In this document: piece by piece, positions 1 through 7,556 of the stretch
Position numbering within the stretch: position 1 is the stretch's first letter
How the letters are laid out: the number at the start of each line of letters is the position of its first letter
DNA from: a virus
Taxonomy: Duplodnaviria > Heunggongvirae > Uroviricota > Caudoviricetes
Length of the DNA: 7,556 nucleotides
IMG/VR virus record: IMGVR_UViG_2737471851_000002
Reading direction: 5' to 3' (one strand)
Translations under genes and position numbers: made by a program
Notes under the pieces: generated by a model
What the model was told of the DNA's origin: nothing
The model's database searches: none
Seen by the model: the letters and a program-made list of their open reading frames with translations, nothing else

Positions 1-29
1 CCTGCATCAAATGTCAGCGCATCCAGCAT
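1..29 (-). CDS. D: Tail protein D, N-terminal fragment only (ATG at 29..27, reads MLDALTFDA...; gene continues past the window start)
   Basis: ATG overlaps the U stop as TAATG (31..27) on the minus strand. Its position directly after U matches the P2 order FI-FII-E-T-U-D. Only about 9 codons are visible, so identity rests mainly on synteny. Confidence 0.5.
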
Positions 30-508
30 TATCCCGCCCCCGTCATACCCGTGAATTTAGTCGCCATACTGCCAGCCTTACCGATGAGCGACTCCGCCTG
101 TTTACCGATATCGCCATAAAGCGCGGCCAGTGATTCATCAACGCGGGTGAGCGACAGCGTAAAATCAATTTTTCGGGGTGTGCCATCTGCAAAGAAAATA
201 CTCCCTGTTTCACTCACCCTGCTGATGACATACATGCCGTAAATCATGCCGGTGCCATCCAGCAACGGCCACGCCCGGCCTTCCTCTGCCATCAGCCTGA
301 GCGTGGTCATCGTCAGCTTCCCGCCGGTCAGTTCGGGATAAAGCACGCCGGCAAGTGTGATGTTTTCCTCGCCAACACCGAGAAACTGAAAGGCATCCCG
401 TTTACCGATACGGGAATTTGACGGCCAGCGATAATCTGATTCACGCTGCATGGTCTGGTGTGGCAGCGTCTGGCGCATAAAAACAAACATACCTAACGCG
501 AGCATCAT
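29..508 (-). CDS. U: Tail protein U (P2 gpU-like, 159 aa)
   Basis: 159-aa ORF directly downstream of the tape measure gene. Length and position match P2 gpU. A strong GGAGG Shine-Dalgarno sits in the 14-nt gap after the T stop (509..522, minus strand). Confidence 0.8.
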   Translation of the reverse strand: MMLALGMFVFMRQTLPHQTMQRESDYRWPSNSRIGKRDAFQFLGVGEENITLAGVLYPELTGGKLTMTTLRLMAEEGRAWPLLDGTGMIYGMYVISRVSETGSIFFADGTPRKIDFTLSLTRVDESLAALYGDIGKQAESLIGKAGSMATKFTGMTGAG

Positions 509-522
509 TTTTCGTCACCTCC

Positions 523-2970
523 TTAACCGTCATGCATCATGCTGGCACGGGCGCGCGCACGTTTATCCCGCTCGTATTTTTCGAGCGCATCCTGTAACTG
601 GCGGTCAAGCTGTGTCCCCGGCGCAGTACCACCCGTCAGGCTGATGTGATATTCGTTTTTACTCTGGTCCACATAAGAGCGGCCAGCCGGTGCCGTAACC
701 GGCTGATAAGCCTGATAGCCTGCATAAGAGCTGGTCGCCGGAATATAACCACCGCTGCCATACGTGGCGGCTTGAGTTCTGGCGGCGGTCTGGTCAAGTG
801 TGTCTGACTCTTTGTTGATAACACCGAGTTTTTCCAGTACCCAGTCAATTCCGCTGCGCAGTTTGTTGAACGCATTAAGCGGCAGCATCAGCGCGTCAGC
901 CAGTGCCTGCCCGAACATGACGCCAGTATCACGGCAACGGTTCAGGGTGTCCTGGGTGGCTTTGACCGGGGCAATCAGGTTTTTAAACCACTGCCACGCG
1001 GCCTGTAACTTTTCGCCCAGCCAGTCAAACACCGGCTTAAGTGGCGTGAACAGTTCCCCCACCGGCGCAAATGCCGCTTTCAGCCCTTCCATCACACCGC
1101 CAAAGAATGCGCTGACAGGCTCCCAGTATTTACGGATAAGCAACGCCCCGGCGACAATGGCGGCCACCACGGCCACAACCGGCCAGCTAATCGCCCCGAT
1201 GGCGGTCATAACAGCACTGCCAACCGTCGTGAAGATTGCCCCCATTGCGCCTGCTGCCGCGATGATGGCATTGATGCCGGTGATAACCGGCCAGGCTACA
1301 AGACCAATGGCACCGATGATGCCAGTAAGCGCCAGCGCGCCACCGGCAATTAGGCCAATGGTTGACGCCAGTGATTTGTTTTTCTGGATCCAGCCGTCGA
1401 GTTTTAACACATACTTTGTGGCCGTCTGCGTGAGCTTACGCAGTGCGCCTTCCTGCTGGTCAAACAGGTCAGTCCCCACCGCTTCATAAGCGGACTGAAA
1501 CTCCTTAAAGTCACCGCCGAGGTTGTCCTGCATGATTTTAACCAGCTCTTCCGTTTTACCGTCTGAGGCTTTCAGTGTGGCGGTCAGCTTATCCAGTTTT
1601 CCGCTTGCAGCCGCTGCCAGTAAAACGTTCGCTGATTTCAGGGCTTCCTCACCAAAAATGGTTTTAAGGTATTCCCCCTTCTGAGACGTTCCCAGCTTGT
1701 GTTTATCAAAGCTGGCCTGAATCTCTTTCAGAATGGTGAACAACGGACGCATATTTCCCTTTTTGTCCGAGGTTTTAACGCCAAGCTCTTTGAGTGCATC
1801 CCATGCTTTTCCAGTCGGTGCCTGTAATCGGGTGACAACGGCACTGCCACCCGTACCCGCCATTGACCCCCTGATGTTATTGTCATGCAGCACACCTGTC
1901 ATGGCCGCTGCCTGTTCAAGACTTACACCTGCCGTCCTCGCAACCGGACCGAGGTAAGTCAGTGCATCACTGAGTCCCTGAAAATCAGCCGCCGACTTAT
2001 TCATCGTTGCCGACAACACGTCGCCCACATGGCTGACATCATCATTTGACAGTTGAAAGGATGCCTTAGTCCCCAGCAACAGTTGCGCGTTTTCTTCCAT
2101 CGACCGCTGATTCGCCAGTGCCATATTCAGCGTGACCGGCGTTGCCGCCTGAATAGCCGCAGCATCTCCACCCGCTTTCGCAATGATAATCTGCGCACCG
2201 GCCGCATCATCCGCTGAGGCGGCGGTATTGTCGCCGAGCTGGCGCGCCTGTTTGCGGAGCGCGGCCATTTCGGCGGAATCTTTTGCCACACCGAGCACGG
2301 CCTGCAATTCTGAGTTTTTCTGCGCAAACTCATAACCGGGCATCAGCAGCTTAACTCCGGCCATCGTTCCCGCCGCCGCAATCCCCACACCGGCAGCGCC
2401 CACTGAGGCCATATTTCCGGCCAGTTCCTTTCCGGCCTGATAACGCTGTTTTACTGCGTTAAGTTTTGCCTGTTGCGCACTGACACGCACCAGCGCATCA
2501 CGCTGACGGTTAAGCTGTGCGGTGGTTTCACTGATACGGTTTTTCAGTCCCTGCTCATCATGTGCAAGATTGCGGGTATTAATTCCCACAGCGGCCAGTT
2601 CCCGCTGCTGGCGTTTAACGGAATCTGTCAGGCGGTTATATTTCGCCTGTAAGTCCTCCGCCGCACGCTTTGCGGATTCCAGGACTTTCGCCTGAGCACG
2701 GGTCGGACGTTCGGTGTTTTTAAACTGTGTGGCAAGGGCTTCGGCCTCCTGCCGTGCCTTTTCAAGTGCATGACCAGTCACGGCGAGCTGTGCACTGGTC
2801 TTGCGGAATCCCTCAATACGGGATGCGTGACCGTTCAGCTCGCGCAGTGATTTTTGTGTTTCCCGGATATCCCCCGACAGCGACTTGCTCGCTGTGCGGA
2901 TGGATTTAAACGGGCGGGATGCCTGGTCAACAGCCCTGAGCAATACCTGTAATTTTACATTGTTACTCAT
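523..2970 (-). CDS. T: Tail tape measure protein (P2 gpT-like, 815 aa)
   Basis: 815-aa ORF, the same length as I recall for P2 gpT. It has an Ala/Gln/Arg/Glu-rich, coiled-coil-like N-terminal region and Gly/Ala-rich hydrophobic stretches (e.g. GNMASVGAAGVGIAAAGTMAGV and IGLIAGGALALTGIIGAIGLVAWPV), both typical of tape measure proteins. It lies immediately downstream of E/E'. Confidence 0.9.
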   Translation of the reverse strand: MSNNVKLQVLLRAVDQASRPFKSIRTASKSLSGDIRETQKSLRELNGHASRIEGFRKTSAQLAVTGHALEKARQEAEALATQFKNTERPTRAQAKVLESAKRAAEDLQAKYNRLTDSVKRQQRELAAVGINTRNLAHDEQGLKNRISETTAQLNRQRDALVRVSAQQAKLNAVKQRYQAGKELAGNMASVGAAGVGIAAAGTMAGVKLLMPGYEFAQKNSELQAVLGVAKDSAEMAALRKQARQLGDNTAASADDAAGAQIIIAKAGGDAAAIQAATPVTLNMALANQRSMEENAQLLLGTKASFQLSNDDVSHVGDVLSATMNKSAADFQGLSDALTYLGPVARTAGVSLEQAAAMTGVLHDNNIRGSMAGTGGSAVVTRLQAPTGKAWDALKELGVKTSDKKGNMRPLFTILKEIQASFDKHKLGTSQKGEYLKTIFGEEALKSANVLLAAAASGKLDKLTATLKASDGKTEELVKIMQDNLGGDFKEFQSAYEAVGTDLFDQQEGALRKLTQTATKYVLKLDGWIQKNKSLASTIGLIAGGALALTGIIGAIGLVAWPVITGINAIIAAAGAMGAIFTTVGSAVMTAIGAISWPVVAVVAAIVAGALLIRKYWEPVSAFFGGVMEGLKAAFAPVGELFTPLKPVFDWLGEKLQAAWQWFKNLIAPVKATQDTLNRCRDTGVMFGQALADALMLPLNAFNKLRSGIDWVLEKLGVINKESDTLDQTAARTQAATYGSGGYIPATSSYAGYQAYQPVTAPAGRSYVDQSKNEYHISLTGGTAPGTQLDRQLQDALEKYERDKRARARASMMHDG

Positions 2971-3390
2971 TCGTGTTTCCGCTTCGCCGGAGCGCCTTTT
3001 CGCGCCATGTGATGAGTTCGGTCAGGCTCATGGGATACAGTTCTGATGGCGGCCAGTGAAATATCACTGCCACATCCGCCATCAGGTCATCGACCGACAG
3101 ATTTTTCGGGAACGTCACTGCACCGAGTTCGGCGACAAAAAACCGACCACCTTACCGGCCAGCGCCACAAGGTCAGGCAGTTCCAGCGCGGCGACTTCCT
3201 GCTCGGTCAGCATCGGTGCCGTCATGCGCGGCAGCACCTTAATCAGTGCATCGACTTCTGAGTTTGCGACCGCAGCCAGACTGACACCGCGCAGCGTCCC
3301 CGCACTGGGTTTCATCAGCGTGACCTGTTCGATAACCTGCTCACCACGCCTGACCGGATTGTCCAGGGTAATCACATTTTCTTTGTTCAT
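2963..3390 (-). CDS. E+E': Tail assembly chaperone E+E', made by a programmed -1 frameshift near the end of E; predicted about 141 aa
   Basis: Hand translation of the -1 frame from the slippery site is open for 57 codons (FFVAELGAVTFPKNLSVDDLMADVAVIFHWPPSELYPMSLTELITWREKALRRSGNTNE) and stops at TAA 2965..2963, overlapping the T start as ATGAGTAA. The predicted length is consistent with the roughly 142-aa P2 E+E' product as I recall it. Confidence 0.7.
3115..3390 (-). CDS. E: Tail assembly chaperone E (P2 gpE-like, 91 aa)
   Basis: 91-aa ORF between the tube and tape measure genes. It ends ...VVGFLSPNSVQ, with a TTTTTTG slippery heptamer just before its stop. Confidence 0.85.
   Translation of the reverse strand: MNKENVITLDNPVRRGEQVIEQVTLMKPSAGTLRGVSLAAVANSEVDALIKVLPRMTAPMLTEQEVAALELPDLVALAGKVVGFLSPNSVQ
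3136..3142 (-). other. Slippery heptamer TTTTTTG (within GGTTTTTTG) for the E to E' -1 frameshift
   Basis: Read directly on the minus strand at the G-F-L codons of E. A T6G site is the frameshift site described for the P2 tail operon. Confidence 0.7.
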
Positions 3391-3418
3391 GGTTTTCTCA
3401 CTTCTGAATCGGGGTTAA

Positions 3419-3439
3419 CCGGTCAGCCAGACTGACCGG
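3419..3439 (-). promoter_or_regulatory. Perfect 8-bp inverted repeat (CCGGTCAG, 5-nt spacer, CTGACCGG) between FII and E; predicted stable RNA hairpin
   Basis: Seen directly, 8 nt after the FII stop and 29 nt before the E start. No U-tract follows on the transcript (the next bases are UUAACCCC), so it is not a canonical intrinsic terminator. Confidence 0.4.
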
Positions 3440-3446
3440 ATGAAAA

Positions 3447-3965
3447 TTACAGGCCGATATTGCGGCGGTGTTGCTCCAGCCGGTCGACGCCATTCACCTT
3501 CTCAATCATGTTGATGGTGTCGATTTCGACCAGTTCCTTACCGTCCATCGTCAGCCGGAAATAGGTGCAGACCACGGAGATTTTCGACTCGGTGTCTTCT
3601 CCCTGTTTCCCCTCGCCGGTGTCGATTTCTTTCTGACGTCCACGCATGACCACCTCGACGGCCACAGTTTCGCCGGTATCGTCGCGCTGGTAAGAGCCTG
3701 CAAAACGAATCGGCACAGCATCCACACCGATTGCGGCGTAAAGCTCCCAGATAACCGAATCCGGGAAGCCCCCGAGCGACCACTCCATTGACAGTGCATC
3801 GTCATCAAGGCCGAGGTCTACCGGTGCGCTGCCGTTCATCCCCGCACCGCGATAGTTTTCGAGCTTACGGGTCAGTTTTGGCAGCGTGACGGACTTTGCA
3901 ACGCCCTGATAGCTGTAGCCGTTCAGAAAGACGTTCATTAACTTGAGTTTGCGCGGCATTGCCAT
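3447..3965 (-). CDS. FII: Tail tube protein (P2 gpFII-like, 172 aa)
   Basis: 172-aa ORF directly downstream of the sheath gene. A GGAG Shine-Dalgarno lies in the 12-nt gap after the FI stop. Length and position match P2 FII. Confidence 0.9.
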   Translation of the reverse strand: MAMPRKLKLMNVFLNGYSYQGVAKSVTLPKLTRKLENYRGAGMNGSAPVDLGLDDDALSMEWSLGGFPDSVIWELYAAIGVDAVPIRFAGSYQRDDTGETVAVEVVMRGRQKEIDTGEGKQGEDTESKISVVCTYFRLTMDGKELVEIDTINMIEKVNGVDRLEQHRRNIGL

Positions 3966-3977
3966 CGGTCAGGCTCC

Positions 3978-5168
3978 TTAATTGCTGTTAACCGAGGTGA
4001 CCAGATTTGCCAGGTATTTATCGGTAATACGCTGGCGCAGGGTCAGGTTTTCGAGAGGAGGCACCGGGGTATAGTCGTAGTCGATATACAGTTTTCCGGC
4101 CTTGAGGGTTTCCGCATCGTTGGATTCTTCGCTGAACCAGCAGGTCGCATCCACGATATAGCCGTTTGTTTTCAGCTCACGGAATTTGGCATTGATGCCG
4201 TCAACGATGTCGCGAATCAGCGTTGCGGTGATGGGCTTGTCCACCGCCCACATGTGCGCCTCAGCCATCGTGTCGGCCAGCACCTGCGCGGTGCGGGTGT
4301 AGTTTTCAAAGAGGAACAGCGGGTCATCGGAGCAGGTACGGTTACCCCAGAAGCGGAAACCGTCGCGGCGAATCAGCGTTGTGACGCCTGACTCGTTAAG
4401 CAGGTCAGCATCGGTGCCGGACTCCTGCAAATCCCAGAATACAGATGCGCTGATGCCGGTAACACCGTTCACCCCGACATTGGACAGCGTTTTATGCCAG
4501 CCCTGCTCCTGGTCGATTTTAGCGCGCAGACCCAGCGCACGGGCGGTGGCATACGCGGTGGCAGTGGTACTGGTGACCGTATCCCATGCGAGGAAATCCG
4601 GCCAGATGACCATCAGCTCACGCTGGCTGAAATTCTGACGGTAGGCTTTCACCTCGGAAATGGTTTTACAGCCCCATGCGCTGATATACCCGAAAGCGCG
4701 CAGCTTCTGACAGACTGATGCCAGTGCAACAGCCACCTCTTTGGTGTCCAGTCCCGGCACGCCGAGAATACGCGGTTTAACACCAGTTACCGACTCCGCC
4801 GCCAGCAGGGCTTTCAGTCCGGTGTACTGACCGTTTTCGTCGGTGGTGCCGATGATATTGGAAACGGTCTGCGCGAGTTTCGTTTCTTCGTCGTCGCCGG
4901 TGCCGTCTTCCACACGCACGACAACGGTGACCGGTTTTGACTGGTCGGCGATGGCCTGCAACGATGCCGCCAGCGTGCCTTTTTTACCGGCCTTTGCAAT
5001 TGCGCTCTGCACATTGGTAATCAGCACAGGTTTATTGAGGGGGAAGGTTTCCGCATCCGCATCGCTGGCCGTGCAAACCATGCCGACAATGGCAGTGGAT
5101 ACAGTGGAAATGACGCGGGTGCCATCGTTAATCTCCAGCACCTGCACGCCATGATGATAGTCACTCAT
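3978..5168 (-). CDS. FI: Contractile tail sheath protein (P2 gpFI-like, 396 aa)
   Basis: 396-aa ORF, the same length as I recall for P2 FI, and first gene of the FI-FII-E-T-U-D block. A GGAG Shine-Dalgarno sits 8 nt upstream of the ATG. Confidence 0.9.
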   Translation of the reverse strand: MSDYHHGVQVLEINDGTRVISTVSTAIVGMVCTASDADAETFPLNKPVLITNVQSAIAKAGKKGTLAASLQAIADQSKPVTVVVRVEDGTGDDEETKLAQTVSNIIGTTDENGQYTGLKALLAAESVTGVKPRILGVPGLDTKEVAVALASVCQKLRAFGYISAWGCKTISEVKAYRQNFSQRELMVIWPDFLAWDTVTSTTATAYATARALGLRAKIDQEQGWHKTLSNVGVNGVTGISASVFWDLQESGTDADLLNESGVTTLIRRDGFRFWGNRTCSDDPLFLFENYTRTAQVLADTMAEAHMWAVDKPITATLIRDIVDGINAKFRELKTNGYIVDATCWFSEESNDAETLKAGKLYIDYDYTPVPPLENLTLRQRITDKYLANLVTSVNSN

Positions 5169-5257
5169 CCGTTTAACTCCGTGGTTAATGGGTGCAACTA
5201 TTTTCTGTTGGGCAGTGCATGAGACGCTATTTGACCTGGCTGGTCAGTGGATGAAAC

Positions 5258-5295
5258 AACAGATAAAGAAAAGGCGGGCAATCAGCTTGCCTGCC
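5258..5295 (-). terminator. Candidate rho-independent terminator on the minus strand
   Basis: Minus-strand RNA reads GGCAGGCAA, loop GCUGAU, UUGCCCGCC (9-bp GC-rich stem with one A-C mismatch), followed directly by UUUUCUUUAUCUGUUGUUU. It lies about 130 nt after the stop of the cargo ORF and about 90 nt before the FI start. Confidence 0.45.
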
Positions 5296-5345
5296 TTGAT
5301 TTGTACTCTCTCTGTTTCCAACTGACAAATTACGTAACCAAAATT

Positions 5346-5361
5346 CTGTCAAATCTGACAG
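5346..5361. promoter_or_regulatory. Inverted repeat CTGTCA-AATC-TGACAG (TGT-N8-ACA core); possible regulator binding site
   Basis: Seen directly in the intergenic region between the cargo ORF and FI. A second imperfect dyad, TGT-N9-ACA, lies at 5313..5327. Neither has the TGT-N12-ACA spacing I recall for Ogr-dependent P2 late promoters. Confidence 0.25.
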
Positions 5362-5428
5362 CCTGTTTTGAGCGAAGAGCGGACCTGAGATTGTGGTATG
5401 CTAATTTATGGGGAGCAGGTCAATTGTA

Positions 5429-6253
5429 TTAGTTATCTTTTTGCTTTTCTTTATCCCATTTCTTTGCAGTGGTCTGATACCACTCTTCACGTGCTCGTTG
5501 TTCCTCGGCTCTGTCACTTGAATTATAGTTGTCTGTTTTAATTTTTTTGCTTCCCTGGGAAATCGGCCTCCAGTCTTCTCTAATCTTTTTCATCTGCTCA
5601 GCTATCTGTGTCATTGGACTCCTTGCACCTAAGTAGCTAACCCCCTCGAAAGAAGCCATATCATAAGAATACTCATTCCGCTCTCTTTCAGTTGAGCCCG
5701 GCTGTTTAGACCAGCTAATACTAACAGAATAAACTTGATCTTTAATCTGGTCATACTTACAAAGACTGCTGTTGAGGGAATGGCCGTTTTTCAATACGCT
5801 AACCTTGCTAAATGGTATACCTTTATTTTTTCTATGTTCTGCATTAACCAGTGGGGGATTAAATCCGACTTCAATATCATAGGCTGGGGCATTTCCGGTA
5901 TTAGCAATATTGATATCAAAATAAAAAGCAGCCCAAGAATTTGGTTCAAGAGTCACAACGACATGAGGTTGAACTGATGCGTCAACCATCCTTTTTGTCT
6001 CGTCTGCTAATAGCCTTGTTACTCTCCACAAGAAAAATGTAGCAACTGCTGTTAGCAATGCTGCCAAAGCGGAGATATCGGCACTTAAATCGCCGTTCGT
6101 CTGCGGGTCACTGCCCGGCATCGGGCAAAGGCTCACTTTCGGGCAGGCGTTGGCGACAATCACTGGCGTCAGTGCAGGCCGGACGCTGGTGCAACCGGCG
6201 CACAGCATCAGGCAGGTCAGCGCCATACCAGCGGCGAAAATCCTCGTTTTCAT
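5429..6253 (-). CDS. lysC: LysC-like o-spanin lipoprotein start (embedded in lysB) whose frame runs on into a lower-GC cargo segment; predicted 274-aa chimeric product
   Basis: ATG at 6253..6251 with a GAGG Shine-Dalgarno 9-12 nt upstream, inside lysB in another frame. The N-terminus MKTRIFAAGMALTCLMLCAGC is a lipoprotein signal with a lipobox-like LCAGC, followed by a Pro/Cys-rich segment, as in Rz1/LysC o-spanins. The frame has no stop until 5429..5431. Downstream come a hydrophobic stretch (ISALAALLTAVATFFLW, about 6026..6076) and about 190 aa of unrecognised sequence ending in a charged tail (KKWDKEKQKDN). The start assigned by the ORF track at 6370 has no ribosome binding site and is probably not used. 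Confidence 0.55.
   Translation of the reverse strand: MKTRIFAAGMALTCLMLCAGCTSVRPALTPVIVANACPKVSLCPMPGSDPQTNGDLSADISALAALLTAVATFFLWRVTRLLADETKRMVDASVQPHVVVTLEPNSWAAFYFDINIANTGNAPAYDIEVGFNPPLVNAEHRKNKGIPFSKVSVLKNGHSLNSSLCKYDQIKDQVYSVSISWSKQPGSTERERNEYSYDMASFEGVSYLGARSPMTQIAEQMKKIREDWRPISQGSKKIKTDNYNSSDRAEEQRAREEWYQTTAKKWDKEKQKDN
5430..5990. other. Lower-GC cargo segment (about 40% GC by hand count, against roughly 55-60% in the flanking phage genes)
   Basis: GC was hand-counted in 60-nt blocks and ranged from 33% to 52%. The coding frame uses codons rare in enterobacterial and phage genes (ATA, AGA, AGG). The segment lies between the lysis cassette and the sheath gene, adjacent to FI where P2 has its Z/fun locus. 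Confidence 0.6.
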
Positions 6254-6533
6254 TAAGTAACCTCGTGATGGTTTTCTCGCGCTGTGCTTCACGTTTCGCG
6301 GCGTTCTCCAGTTCCTGACGCAGTGCCACCTGCGCCAGCTCGTTTTTGCCTGCCCTGGTAAGGGCAACATGAAGCTGGTTTTTCAGCATGGTGATGGTCG
6401 TCTGCTGTTCACTGGCGACGTTGTTCGCCCTGTCCAGCGAGGCGCGCAGGCTGGCATTTTTATGTTTCACCAGAAACAGACCGGCCACCGCCAGTGATAA
6501 CAACACAACCAGCACAGTCATCAGCTTTGACAT
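6108..6533 (-). CDS. lysB: i-spanin LysB (Rz-like, 141 aa)
   Basis: N-terminal transmembrane segment (MSKLMTVLVVLLSLAVAGLFLV) followed by a charged, helical periplasmic domain. A second ORF with a lipoprotein signal is embedded in another frame, the Rz/Rz1 arrangement. GAGG Shine-Dalgarno upstream. The start overlaps the lysA 3' end by 13 nt. Confidence 0.85.
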   Translation of the reverse strand: MSKLMTVLVVLLSLAVAGLFLVKHKNASLRASLDRANNVASEQQTTITMLKNQLHVALTRAGKNELAQVALRQELENAAKREAQREKTITRLLNENEDFRRWYGADLPDAVRRLHQRPACTDASDCRQRLPESEPLPDAGQ

Positions 6534-6946
6534 GGTTCCCGCCCCTCAAAACGCTGACGGCAGGCCGTACGTATCAGCCGGAAAAACAGCGACGCCACAA
6601 GATAAATCAGCGCAGTAAAAATCCACCCGGCAGCGACCAGCGAGATAAACGTCACCACCATCACCACCAGAGCCGCCACCCGTCTGCACCACGGCACCGG
6701 CTGCAAAAACAGCGACGTGACAATCTTCACGGCCAGCGATTCCGGCGGCAGCTCCCGTCCGTAGCGTTCCAGTACATACTCAGTGGCATACACACCGACA
6801 CCACCGGCAACCACACAGATAACCGTCGCCAGAATCGCCCAGGTGGCAACAAAACTGACGGCCACGCTCTGCGGGTAAATCAGGGACAGTGCCAGCATCA
6901 GCGCCAGCAACACGTTCAGCATCAGTGAAAGGGATAATTTCTTCAT
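6521..6946 (-). CDS. lysA: LysA-like membrane protein (lysis timing or antiholin-type accessory, 141 aa)
   Basis: 141-aa ORF with several predicted transmembrane helices, sitting between the endolysin and lysB as in P2. GGAG Shine-Dalgarno 9-12 nt upstream. Confidence 0.75.
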   Translation of the reverse strand: MKKLSLSLMLNVLLALMLALSLIYPQSVAVSFVATWAILATVICVVAGGVGVYATEYVLERYGRELPPESLAVKIVTSLFLQPVPWCRRVAALVVMVVTFISLVAAGWIFTALIYLVASLFFRLIRTACRQRFEGREPCQS

Positions 6947-6960
6947 GGTGTTGACTCCGT

Positions 6961-7458
6961 TTAAGCCGGTACGCCGCCAGCGGTACGCCAGACGGTGACC
7001 AGTTTTTCCAGTGAATGCTCACGCTGACCGTAACCGGCACCCGGCAGGGACGCCCAGATATTGCGACAGCGTGAAATGGCGCGCTCAATGCGTCCCGCCC
7101 GGATGTCATCCAGTGCACCGCGTTCGCGGATCAACTGAATGGCGAGCCTGTCCTGTGACAACGGACTGAAATCCGGCAGGGCAAGCTGTTTGCGGTAATG
7201 CGGCCAGAACAGGTAAAGCTGCTGATAGCGACCGGAGGCCGTTGATTTTTCACCGCGACGGTTAAACACCTTCGCCGGTCGGCCATGCGCGAACGGGTGG
7301 TCACTGTAGTCGGTGAAAATTTCCGGCTTTCCGTCCAGTCCGGTGACTATCACGTCATAGCCCCGGTTTTTCGTCAGCGGATGGTTCACCGTCCCTTCGG
7401 ACACGGCCAGCATGTCGAGAAAGGCGGCGATATTCTGATGCGTGTTAATTACCGGCAT
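6961..7458 (-). CDS. K: Endolysin, lambda-R-like lytic transglycosylase (P2 gpK-like, 165 aa)
   Basis: N-terminal motif FLDMLAVSEGT and C-terminal IWASLPGAGYGQREH closely resemble lambda R (LDMLAWSEGT ... IWASLPGAGYGQFEH) as I recall it. Length and position match P2 K. Confidence 0.9.
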   Translation of the reverse strand: MPVINTHQNIAAFLDMLAVSEGTVNHPLTKNRGYDVIVTGLDGKPEIFTDYSDHPFAHGRPAKVFNRRGEKSTASGRYQQLYLFWPHYRKQLALPDFSPLSQDRLAIQLIRERGALDDIRAGRIERAISRCRNIWASLPGAGYGQREHSLEKLVTVWRTAGGVPA

Positions 7459-7556
7459 TACGGTTTCCCCCTGCCCTTAAAGCGGCGCTGAATGGCAATC
7501 TCAATCACCTGATAACCGGCGATACCCAGCATGGAGCCGATGCCGCACACCGCAGG
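7458..7556 (-). CDS. Y: Holin, C-terminal fragment (the gene starts beyond the window end)
   Basis: Open frame entering from the window end reads ...PAVCGIGSMLGIAGYQVIEIAIQRRFKGRGKP and stops at TAA 7460..7458, overlapping the K start as TAATG. Its position immediately upstream of the endolysin fits the P2 holin. Only 32 codons are visible. Confidence 0.5.
   Translation of the reverse strand, partial: PAVCGIGSMLGIAGYQVIEIAIQRRFKGRGKP

Follow-up and report, generated by a model that had tools for sequence, protein, structure and literature searches.

A partial DUF8453 cargo gene apparently fused to lysC by a deletion in a P2-like prophage, and its possible role in phage defense

We analyzed a 7,556-nucleotide stretch of DNA from a tailed-phage record (IMG/VR IMGVR_UViG_2737471851_000002; Caudoviricetes), referred to in its full length as the window, and in particular a 313-amino-acid open reading frame (ORF) that lies between the lysis genes and the tail sheath gene FI. 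Every real gene of the window lies on the minus strand, and together they make up the late region of a P2-like (Peduovirus) prophage. The 313-amino-acid ORF is a chimera of the lysis gene lysC and a cargo gene, made by a deletion, and not a new protein. By sequence comparison, its cargo part is the larger part of a known gene of P2-like prophages, catalogued as P2-EC53 ORF1, PHROG 11802 and DUF8453. The features of the locus are listed below, with residue numbers of the native cargo protein.

5429-6370, minus strand: the 313-amino-acid ORF.
6078-6253, minus strand: 5' part of lysC, codons 1-59/60 of 96, with signal peptide and lipobox (LCAG/C); Rz1-like o-spanin.
6074-6077: deletion junction, a 4-bp microhomology (GATA on the plus strand, TATC on the minus strand) common to lysC codon 60 and ORF1 codon 16.
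5429-6077, minus strand: 3' 649 nucleotides of DUF8453/P2-EC53 ORF1, native residues 16/17-230 plus the stop codon (5429-5431).
5975-6073, minus strand: native residues 17-49, predicted transmembrane helix (about 17-32) and juxtamembrane helix, TAVATFFLWRVTxxLAxETKRM; the most conserved part of the family.
5987-5989, minus strand: internal ATG, native Met45, a conserved internal residue (M in 56/63 homologues, L in 7/63).
5660-5962, minus strand: native residues 54-154, predicted seven-strand immunoglobulin-like (Ig-like) beta-sandwich including the NTGNAPAYDI motif.
5435-5617, minus strand: native residues 169-229, two charged C-terminal helices (169-188 and 201-229 in the AlphaFold2 model; alignment).
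5384-5428, minus strand: 3' untranslated end of the cargo cassette, from the ORF1 stop codon to the resumption of P2 homology.
5169-5383, minus strand: conserved P2 backbone upstream of FI, in P2 the pF late-promoter region.

The identity of the cargo segment follows from several comparisons. When window positions 5170-6110 were searched against phage records by megablast, AJ512682 and phage R18C matched at 97.1% identity over query positions 1-908 (window 5170-6077), and the remaining P2-like phages aligned solely with query positions 1-215, on the FI side. AJ512682, published in 2004, is the 'Bacteriophage P2-EC53 proviral Z-region, ORF1'; its 693-nucleotide coding sequence (CAD54906.1) is labeled 'putative lysogenic conversion protein' and is annotated with a ribosome-binding site, a -10 signal and flanking inverted repeats. 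These long inverted repeats were not recovered by our repeat search. In R18C (QDP43518.1), as in the intact relatives, the gene is flanked by the genes for tail-fiber assembly and the sheath. The native product, of 230 amino acids, starts MIEF(I/V)AEHINTVSTLISALAALLTAVATFFLWRV; residues 17-230 of the window copy are identical to WP_000569052.1 (230 amino acids) and to the 230-amino-acid ORF of an intact prophage, L003, in Escherichia coli CFSAN061770. At the nucleotide level, 5429-6077 is 100% identical to E. coli CFSAN061770, APEC O78 and others. Of 5,426 complete E. coli genomes, 105 contain the 649-nucleotide segment (84 of the 105 at an identity of at least 99%), and the adjacent P2 lysis module is carried by ~1,620 of these complete genomes. 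The segment also matched PHROG 11802 (function unknown) with E = 1.3e-138 over profile positions 12-230 of 230. Most database copies are annotated 'hypothetical protein'; the newest output of the Prokaryotic Genome Annotation Pipeline (PGAP) reads 'DUF8453 domain-containing protein', the orthologue so named having 99.1% nucleotide identity to the window segment, and WP_042002648.1 is likewise DUF8453. Literature searches on P2-EC53, WP_000569052 and DUF8453 found no paper.

The window copy and ORF1 of AJ512682 and R18C are the same gene, in the same position and orientation by FI and with the same 3' flank, at 97-100% identity. They differ in that the window copy has lost codons 1-16, the ribosome-binding site and the promoter and has lysC codons 1-60 fused instead; the DUF3606 gene, a 92-amino-acid ORF and the annotated left inverted repeat of the AJ512682 cassette are deleted as well. 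Comparison by blastn with L003 places the breakpoints: window 1-6077 corresponds to L003 7832-13908 and window 6074-7556 to L003 22739-24221, so that the two alignments overlap by the four bases 6074-6077 and ~8,834 bp are missing relative to L003. The lost DNA comprises the lysC 3' end, the genes R, S, V, W, J, I, H and G together with an ATP-binding-protein gene inserted between S and V, the 92-amino-acid ORF and the DUF3606 gene, and, at the ORF1 end, the AT-rich upstream region of ORF1 and its first 44 nucleotides. The crossover falls in the Ile60 codon of LysC and the Ile16 codon of ORF1 and keeps the frame, giving LysC(1-60)::ORF1(17-230), a fusion of 274 amino acids read from the lysC ATG at 6253 (ORF 5429-6253). 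As judged from these alignments, an illegitimate deletion of ~8.8 kb, from inside lysC to ORF1 codon 16, made the in-frame fusion.

The LysC part of the chimera is well recognized. The NCBIfam model NF038368 (P2_Rz1) matches residues 44-108 of the 313-amino-acid ORF (E = 6.1e-23; 80.8 bits, where the cut-off is 27; model positions 2-66 of 85), and the Pfam LysC match scores 27.7 bits. P2 LysC aligns with fusion residues 1-60 including the lipobox; the C-terminal 36 of its 96 residues (P2 reference) are lost, leaving the fusion without an intact spanin C-terminus. The lysis cassette is thus damaged at lysC, although K, lysA and lysB are intact. Because R, S, V, W, J, I, H and G are gone, the prophage is tail-defective, and neither baseplate nor tail fibers can be built. 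The remaining late genes of the window are full-length ORFs, and for this reason the deletion looks recent.

The other genes of the window are the following.

6961-7458, minus strand: endolysin K.
6521-6946, minus strand: lysA.
6108-6533, minus strand: lysB.
Start at 6253, minus strand: lysC.
3978-5168, minus strand: sheath FI.
3447-3965, minus strand: tube FII.
3115-3390, minus strand: E.
523-2970, minus strand: tape measure T.
29-508, minus strand: U.

In P2 and the intact relatives, the eight genes R, S, V, W, J, I, H and G come after lysC and precede the Z/fun interval and FI; all eight are missing from the window. The backbone upstream of FI has 79.5% identity to P2 17433-17700, where the P2 annotation places an activator site at 17555-17583 and the transcription start at 17626-17628. 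This homology covers window 5120-5383 only and stops at 5383, equivalent to P2 17433, within the G-FI interval, the site of fun(Z) in P2. The Z/fun position is accordingly found on the FI side, and the G side is deleted in the window. A strong hairpin of 11 pairs with T-runs (5271-5297) separates the cargo stop codon from the FI promoter region; it is kept in intact prophages (L003 13102-13128) and is likely a terminator that would insulate FI from cargo transcription. A 61-amino-acid plus-strand ORF at 5247-5432 overlaps the region upstream of FI; a small 'hypothetical protein' is annotated at its counterpart position in R18C (L002 4078-4218), and the ORF is probably not a real gene.

Intact prophages carry further genes in or near this interval. 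Their Z cassette also holds the DUF3606 gene (59 amino acids) and the 92-amino-acid hypothetical gene (L003 14444-14954, plus strand; same arrangement at L085 4185-4695), which are divergent from ORF1 across an AT-rich spacer of ~490 bp. The CFSAN061770 prophage has, between S and V and on the opposite strand, a gene for a 414-amino-acid 'ATP-binding protein' (L003 20411-21655, plus strand) that occupies the place of the non-essential P2 orf30 and is absent from the window. The S-V position in L003 is possibly a further cargo slot within the tail genes.

An earlier note on this DNA, made from the letters of the window, had described 5429-5989 as an unrecognized, horizontally acquired cargo domain of about 190 amino acids next to FI, where P2 carries Z/fun. 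Its reading of the composition holds. The guanine-cytosine (GC) fraction is 0.405 in 5429-6077, 0.446 in the spacer 5169-5428 and 0.563 in the remaining window; at third codon positions (GC3) it is 0.356 in the cargo segment as against 0.59-0.69 in FI, FII, T, K, lysA, lysB and U; and eight codons that are rare in E. coli (AGA/AGG/ATA/CTA/CGA/CGG/GGA/CCC) account for 8.8% of the cargo segment and 1.3-5.0% of neighboring genes. Its view of the segment as cargo that a P2-like prophage acquired horizontally at the Z/fun hot spot, adjoining FI, is likewise supported. The locus varies among relatives as the note had expected: the gene is present in the 105 genomes against a background of ~1,620 that carry P2 genes, and P2 itself has the unrelated Fun(Z) there, on the other strand. 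The note was also right that the segment is no tail or lysis protein, since lysis matches are confined to the fused LysC part, and that the N-terminus of the long ORF derives from lysC. The segment is a remnant of a cargo gene; the note's refuting case, descent from R, G or another structural gene, does not apply. The label 'unrecognized' has to be given up in view of the catalogued family, and a weak impression of CARDB/DUF11-like strands found no CARDB or DUF11 match in Pfam at E <= 1. A functional unit of ~190 amino acids was mistaken, as the native protein is 230 residues long and is most conserved upstream of the ATG at 5989. The boundary at 5429 stands; the one at 5989 does not, for the coding segment reaches 6077, where the deletion junction cuts it. 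The boundaries given there leave out the key transmembrane helix, and the note did not see the 8.8-kb deletion.

The helix motif TAVATFFLWRVT..LA.ET.RM is present at 5975-6073 with every invariant position kept; T24, A25, A27, T28, L31, T35, L38, A39, E41 and T42 are invariant in 63 sequences. In the AlphaFold2 model (predicted local distance difference test, pLDDT, 86), residues 2-49 form one continuous helix, and the Kyte-Doolittle peak of the fusion falls at its residues 65-70. The first of the two C-terminal helices is conserved (QIAxQxKKIREDW) and the tail is variable. The mean count of lysine plus arginine rises from 0.25 in the 15 residues preceding the hydrophobic core to 3.68 in the 15 that follow, in the same direction in 63 of 63 sequences, and because basic residues cluster after the core in this way, the positive-inside rule predicts an N-out/C-in topology. 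Residues T24, T28, L31, T35, L38, T42 and M45 are spaced 4-3-4-3 (heptad) and occupy one face of the continuous helix; this invariant face suggests that the helices may pack against each other in an oligomer. Taken with the model, the native 230-amino-acid product is predicted to be a single-pass inner-membrane protein, with a short acidic N-terminus outside and the Ig-like sandwich and charged helices in the cytoplasm.

Searches for relatives of known structure or function returned little. A profile search of the PDB found no sequence relative, and Pfam and NCBIfam scans of the native and fusion proteins gave nothing above threshold besides LysC. An effector of SLATT type was considered and rejected: its matches are sub-threshold (SLATT_4, E 0.39 and 10.6 bits against a cut-off of 55; DUF4231, E 0.1), and it needs two transmembrane helices where DUF8453 has one. 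The top Foldseek matches, which combine a helix with a sandwich, would suggest a pilin-like protein, and this reading was set aside for want of a prepilin motif and because the charge topology is opposite. The cytoplasmic Ig-like gating domains of Kir/KirBac channels (1xl4, 1u4f, 6c3o, 9mh8, Kir7.1) score as Ig-like folds in general do; DUF8453 has a single transmembrane helix, lacks a selectivity filter and is not similar to them in sequence, and the likeness is one of analogy only.

DUF8453 homologues are widespread. A word-based search yielded 126 relatives, from Enterobacterales, Pseudomonas, Rhizobium and Caulobacter, and a profile built from 63 relatives matched 1,970 cluster representatives at E <= 1e-3, 161 of them at E <= 1e-30, most being 215-245 amino acids long. 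In species-representative genomes, 65 loci were spread across alpha-, beta- and gamma-proteobacteria. A conserved partner gene was sought by clustering the ORFs of three genes per side at 64 loci and was rejected; no neighbor family is common to more than five loci, and the DUF8453 gene is on this ground stand-alone. The largest neighbor cluster, a ~110-amino-acid ORF immediately downstream of and convergent with the homologue, is found at five otherwise different loci (L008 8782-9114, L015 7724-8050, L022 6739-7077, L023 6731-7057, L024 6729-7118) and has no counterpart in the P2 context.

Integrases, resolvases and transposases are the Pfam families that recur among the 150 neighbors at most two genes away, and PADLOC assigned others within the same distance to type I and IIG restriction-modification, AbiD, CapP, DRT reverse transcriptases, TIR-NLR, SIR2, MzaA, RmrT, mad2 and DpdH. 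A Pseudomonas homologue lies within a satellite-like island and a Klebsiella homologue in an islet with two integrases. A metagenomic element (L008) carries integrase, relaxase, resolvase and Fic genes, with a reverse transcriptase and SIR2_2 further along the locus. In Rhizobium brockwellii (L007 7430-9657), a DUF6680 gene, the DUF8453 homologue and a CAP12/PCTIR-type TIR gene are tightly packed on the same strand, an arrangement that could be a multi-gene defense locus with DUF8453 as membrane component. A 70%-identical E. coli variant is convergent with an AbiJ_NTD4 gene (L010, L011, L012 6001-6627; L013 1649-2311), and in L010 and L012 the pair is a neighbor of the primase of a P4-like satellite. 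The end of an insertion sequence (IS) element replaces the first ~38 codons of this variant in each of the four E. coli loci examined, which is why databases list many 'MVDAS...' or 'partial' proteins of 190-220 amino acids. Further E. coli copies have frameshifts or truncations.

The positions that the gene occupies are known for defense. The P2 Z/fun locus has been described as a second defense-enriched hot spot, with three validated systems in addition to fun (PMC9519451); it has also been cited as an antiviral-defense site, and a defense hot spot has been reported within the P2 tail genes (PMC13586616). The native DUF8453 gene would accordingly be a stand-alone moron of prophages, satellites and integrative islands whose protein would protect the lysogen against other phages. 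This reading is suggested by a gene that is stand-alone, mobile and AT-rich, that lies in validated defense hot spots, and whose predicted product is membrane-anchored with a conserved helix face and a cytoplasmic domain; we consider the chances of an anti-phage role for the native protein in general to be evenly balanced. Protection might take the form of abortive infection, in which the cytoplasmic sandwich would sense infection and the oligomeric transmembrane bundle would compromise the membrane, or of exclusion, in which the protein would block genome entry at the inner membrane. Only tentatively can the model be extended to a previously unrecognized, widespread single-gene anti-phage family in which a cytoplasmic Ig-like sensor controls an oligomeric bundle of single helices that depolarizes the cell on infection. 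DUF8453 genes are carried in the P2 Z/fun hot spot, a P4-like satellite hot spot and integrative islands; that they encode a sensor-plus-pore system of this kind is less likely than not.

Known single-gene systems offer partial parallels. P2 Fun(Z) (AAD03288.1), which blocks T5, shares with DUF8453 the hot spot between G and FI and a non-essential lysogenic-conversion locus, but it has 528 amino acids, is encoded on the opposite strand and shows no similarity to DUF8453 by BLASTP (best E 1.5). HK97 gp15, P22 SieA and T4 Imm are single-gene, membrane-anchored exclusion or abortive-infection proteins; the likeness lies in their being small, stand-alone inner-membrane proteins of the prophage type expressed in the lysogen. 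DUF8453 differs in that no sequence or fold relation to them was found and in having a large conserved domain that is predicted to be cytoplasmic.

In the window itself, the regulatory setting of the gene is altered. The ribosome-binding site and -10 signal annotated in AJ512682 lie upstream of the ORF1 start codon and are deleted here, as are the first 44 nucleotides. P2 late operons need Ogr and replication, and the window copy would be made only as the LysC fusion from an Ogr-dependent late operon. Its function in a lysogen has probably been lost or silenced, because its own promoter, ribosome-binding site and start are gone and expression would depend on the late O operon with its need for Ogr and replication. 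We lean slightly towards the account as a whole, namely that a known cargo gene encoding a membrane anti-phage moron was fused to lysC by deletion and is silenced here. Several points weigh against it. Neither the native nor the fusion protein matched any family at E <= 1 in PADLOC-DB v2.0.0, which includes the PD-T4/T7/lambda systems, and the Pfam, NCBIfam, PADLOC and PDB searches gave no homology to a family of known function. Topology and oligomerization are predictions, and the association with defense neighbors is a raw observation. The junction is in no other record, exact-protein look-up of the 313-amino-acid (ATG 6370) and 274-amino-acid (ATG 6253) products included, so its biological reality rests on one sequence. 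A consensus scan of window 5150-6600 found no sigma-70-like site, but the scan was simple and found none upstream of the intact gene either, so that promoters may have escaped it. The LysC signal peptide would keep the N-out/C-in orientation and the invariant residues are kept, and the fusion could be active if expressed. No motif of the family turned up in the supplementary data of Vassallo 2022 or in the searched part of those of Rousset 2022.

The native protein may instead not be anti-phage at all and serve another lysogenic-conversion role, in the envelope or host physiology, or act as an accessory to phage lysis or assembly. The depositors of AJ512682 went no further than 'putative lysogenic conversion protein', defense-family matches are lacking, the predicted single-pass membrane protein is encoded between late operons and on their strand, and folds with an N-terminal helix and a beta-sandwich also occur in pilins and TRAP subunits. 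Yet homologues are found in satellites and in integrative and chromosomal islands where P2 lysis and tail genes are absent, and this speaks against a function in the life cycle of P2; the neighborhoods are rich in defense genes; and a pilin would need the prepilin motif and the reverse topology. We regard such a role as unlikely. For the window copy, an alternative to silencing is a LysC::ORF1 fusion that is still functional, its lipoprotein signal exporting the N-terminus, the helix serving as stop-transfer and the cytoplasmic domain remaining intact; it would act as the native protein does whenever the late operon or read-through transcription expressed it. The family-invariant residues, from T24 onward, are all kept and the replaced residues 1-16 are the least conserved; the predicted topology fits an exported N-terminus; lysC has a good ribosome-binding site (GAGG, 7 nucleotides before the ATG at 6253); and with the other window genes full-length the deletion looks recent. 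Nevertheless, the native promoter is gone and late operons have their own requirements, no promoter-like site was seen in the interval scanned, a lipid-anchored extension of 60 residues may disturb assembly, and the 313- and 274-amino-acid frames were not found as proteins in the gene collection; a working fusion is, in our view, quite improbable.

Still less can be said for a soluble, stand-alone product of 186 amino acids that starts at the internal ATG (5989-5987) and acts as the cargo domain, along the lines of the earlier note. The ATG is in frame, the length is as stated, and gene callers have given 190-amino-acid 'MVDAS...' proteins (P0056, P0063) for the IS-truncated E. coli relative. 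The native start, however, lies 44 codons upstream in AJ512682, R18C and L003, and the methionine is internal (position 45) in all full-length homologues. The Shine-Dalgarno-like AGG (in AAAAAGG) abuts the ATG without a spacer, and the product would be without the most conserved helix of the family. The 190-amino-acid entries come from copies cut by an IS3-type element and are pseudogene calls for that reason. The in-frame ATG is therefore real, and its use as a start is highly unlikely. An assembly or cloning artefact at the lysC-ORF1 junction, with an intact source prophage, is equally hard to credit. In its favor, collections of viral and metagenome contigs do not contain the junction 35-mer, and the two flanks are adjacent in none of the 5,426 complete E. 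coli genomes searched. A 4-bp microhomology, on the other hand, is typical of illegitimate recombination and would be too short for k-mer assembly collapse, and defective P2 remnants are common (PMC13586616).

For annotation, the preferred account of a deletion-made fusion means that this prophage is tail-defective and that its 313-amino-acid ORF should be treated as a chimera. The cargo gene is already catalogued as AJ512682 ORF1, PHROG 11802 and DUF8453. With intact alleles in APEC O78, CFSAN061770 and R18C, DUF8453 is a cheap and well-defined candidate for a phage-defense screen. If the anti-phage reading is true, the LysC fusion would provide a natural test of whether the N-terminal 16 residues of the protein are dispensable.

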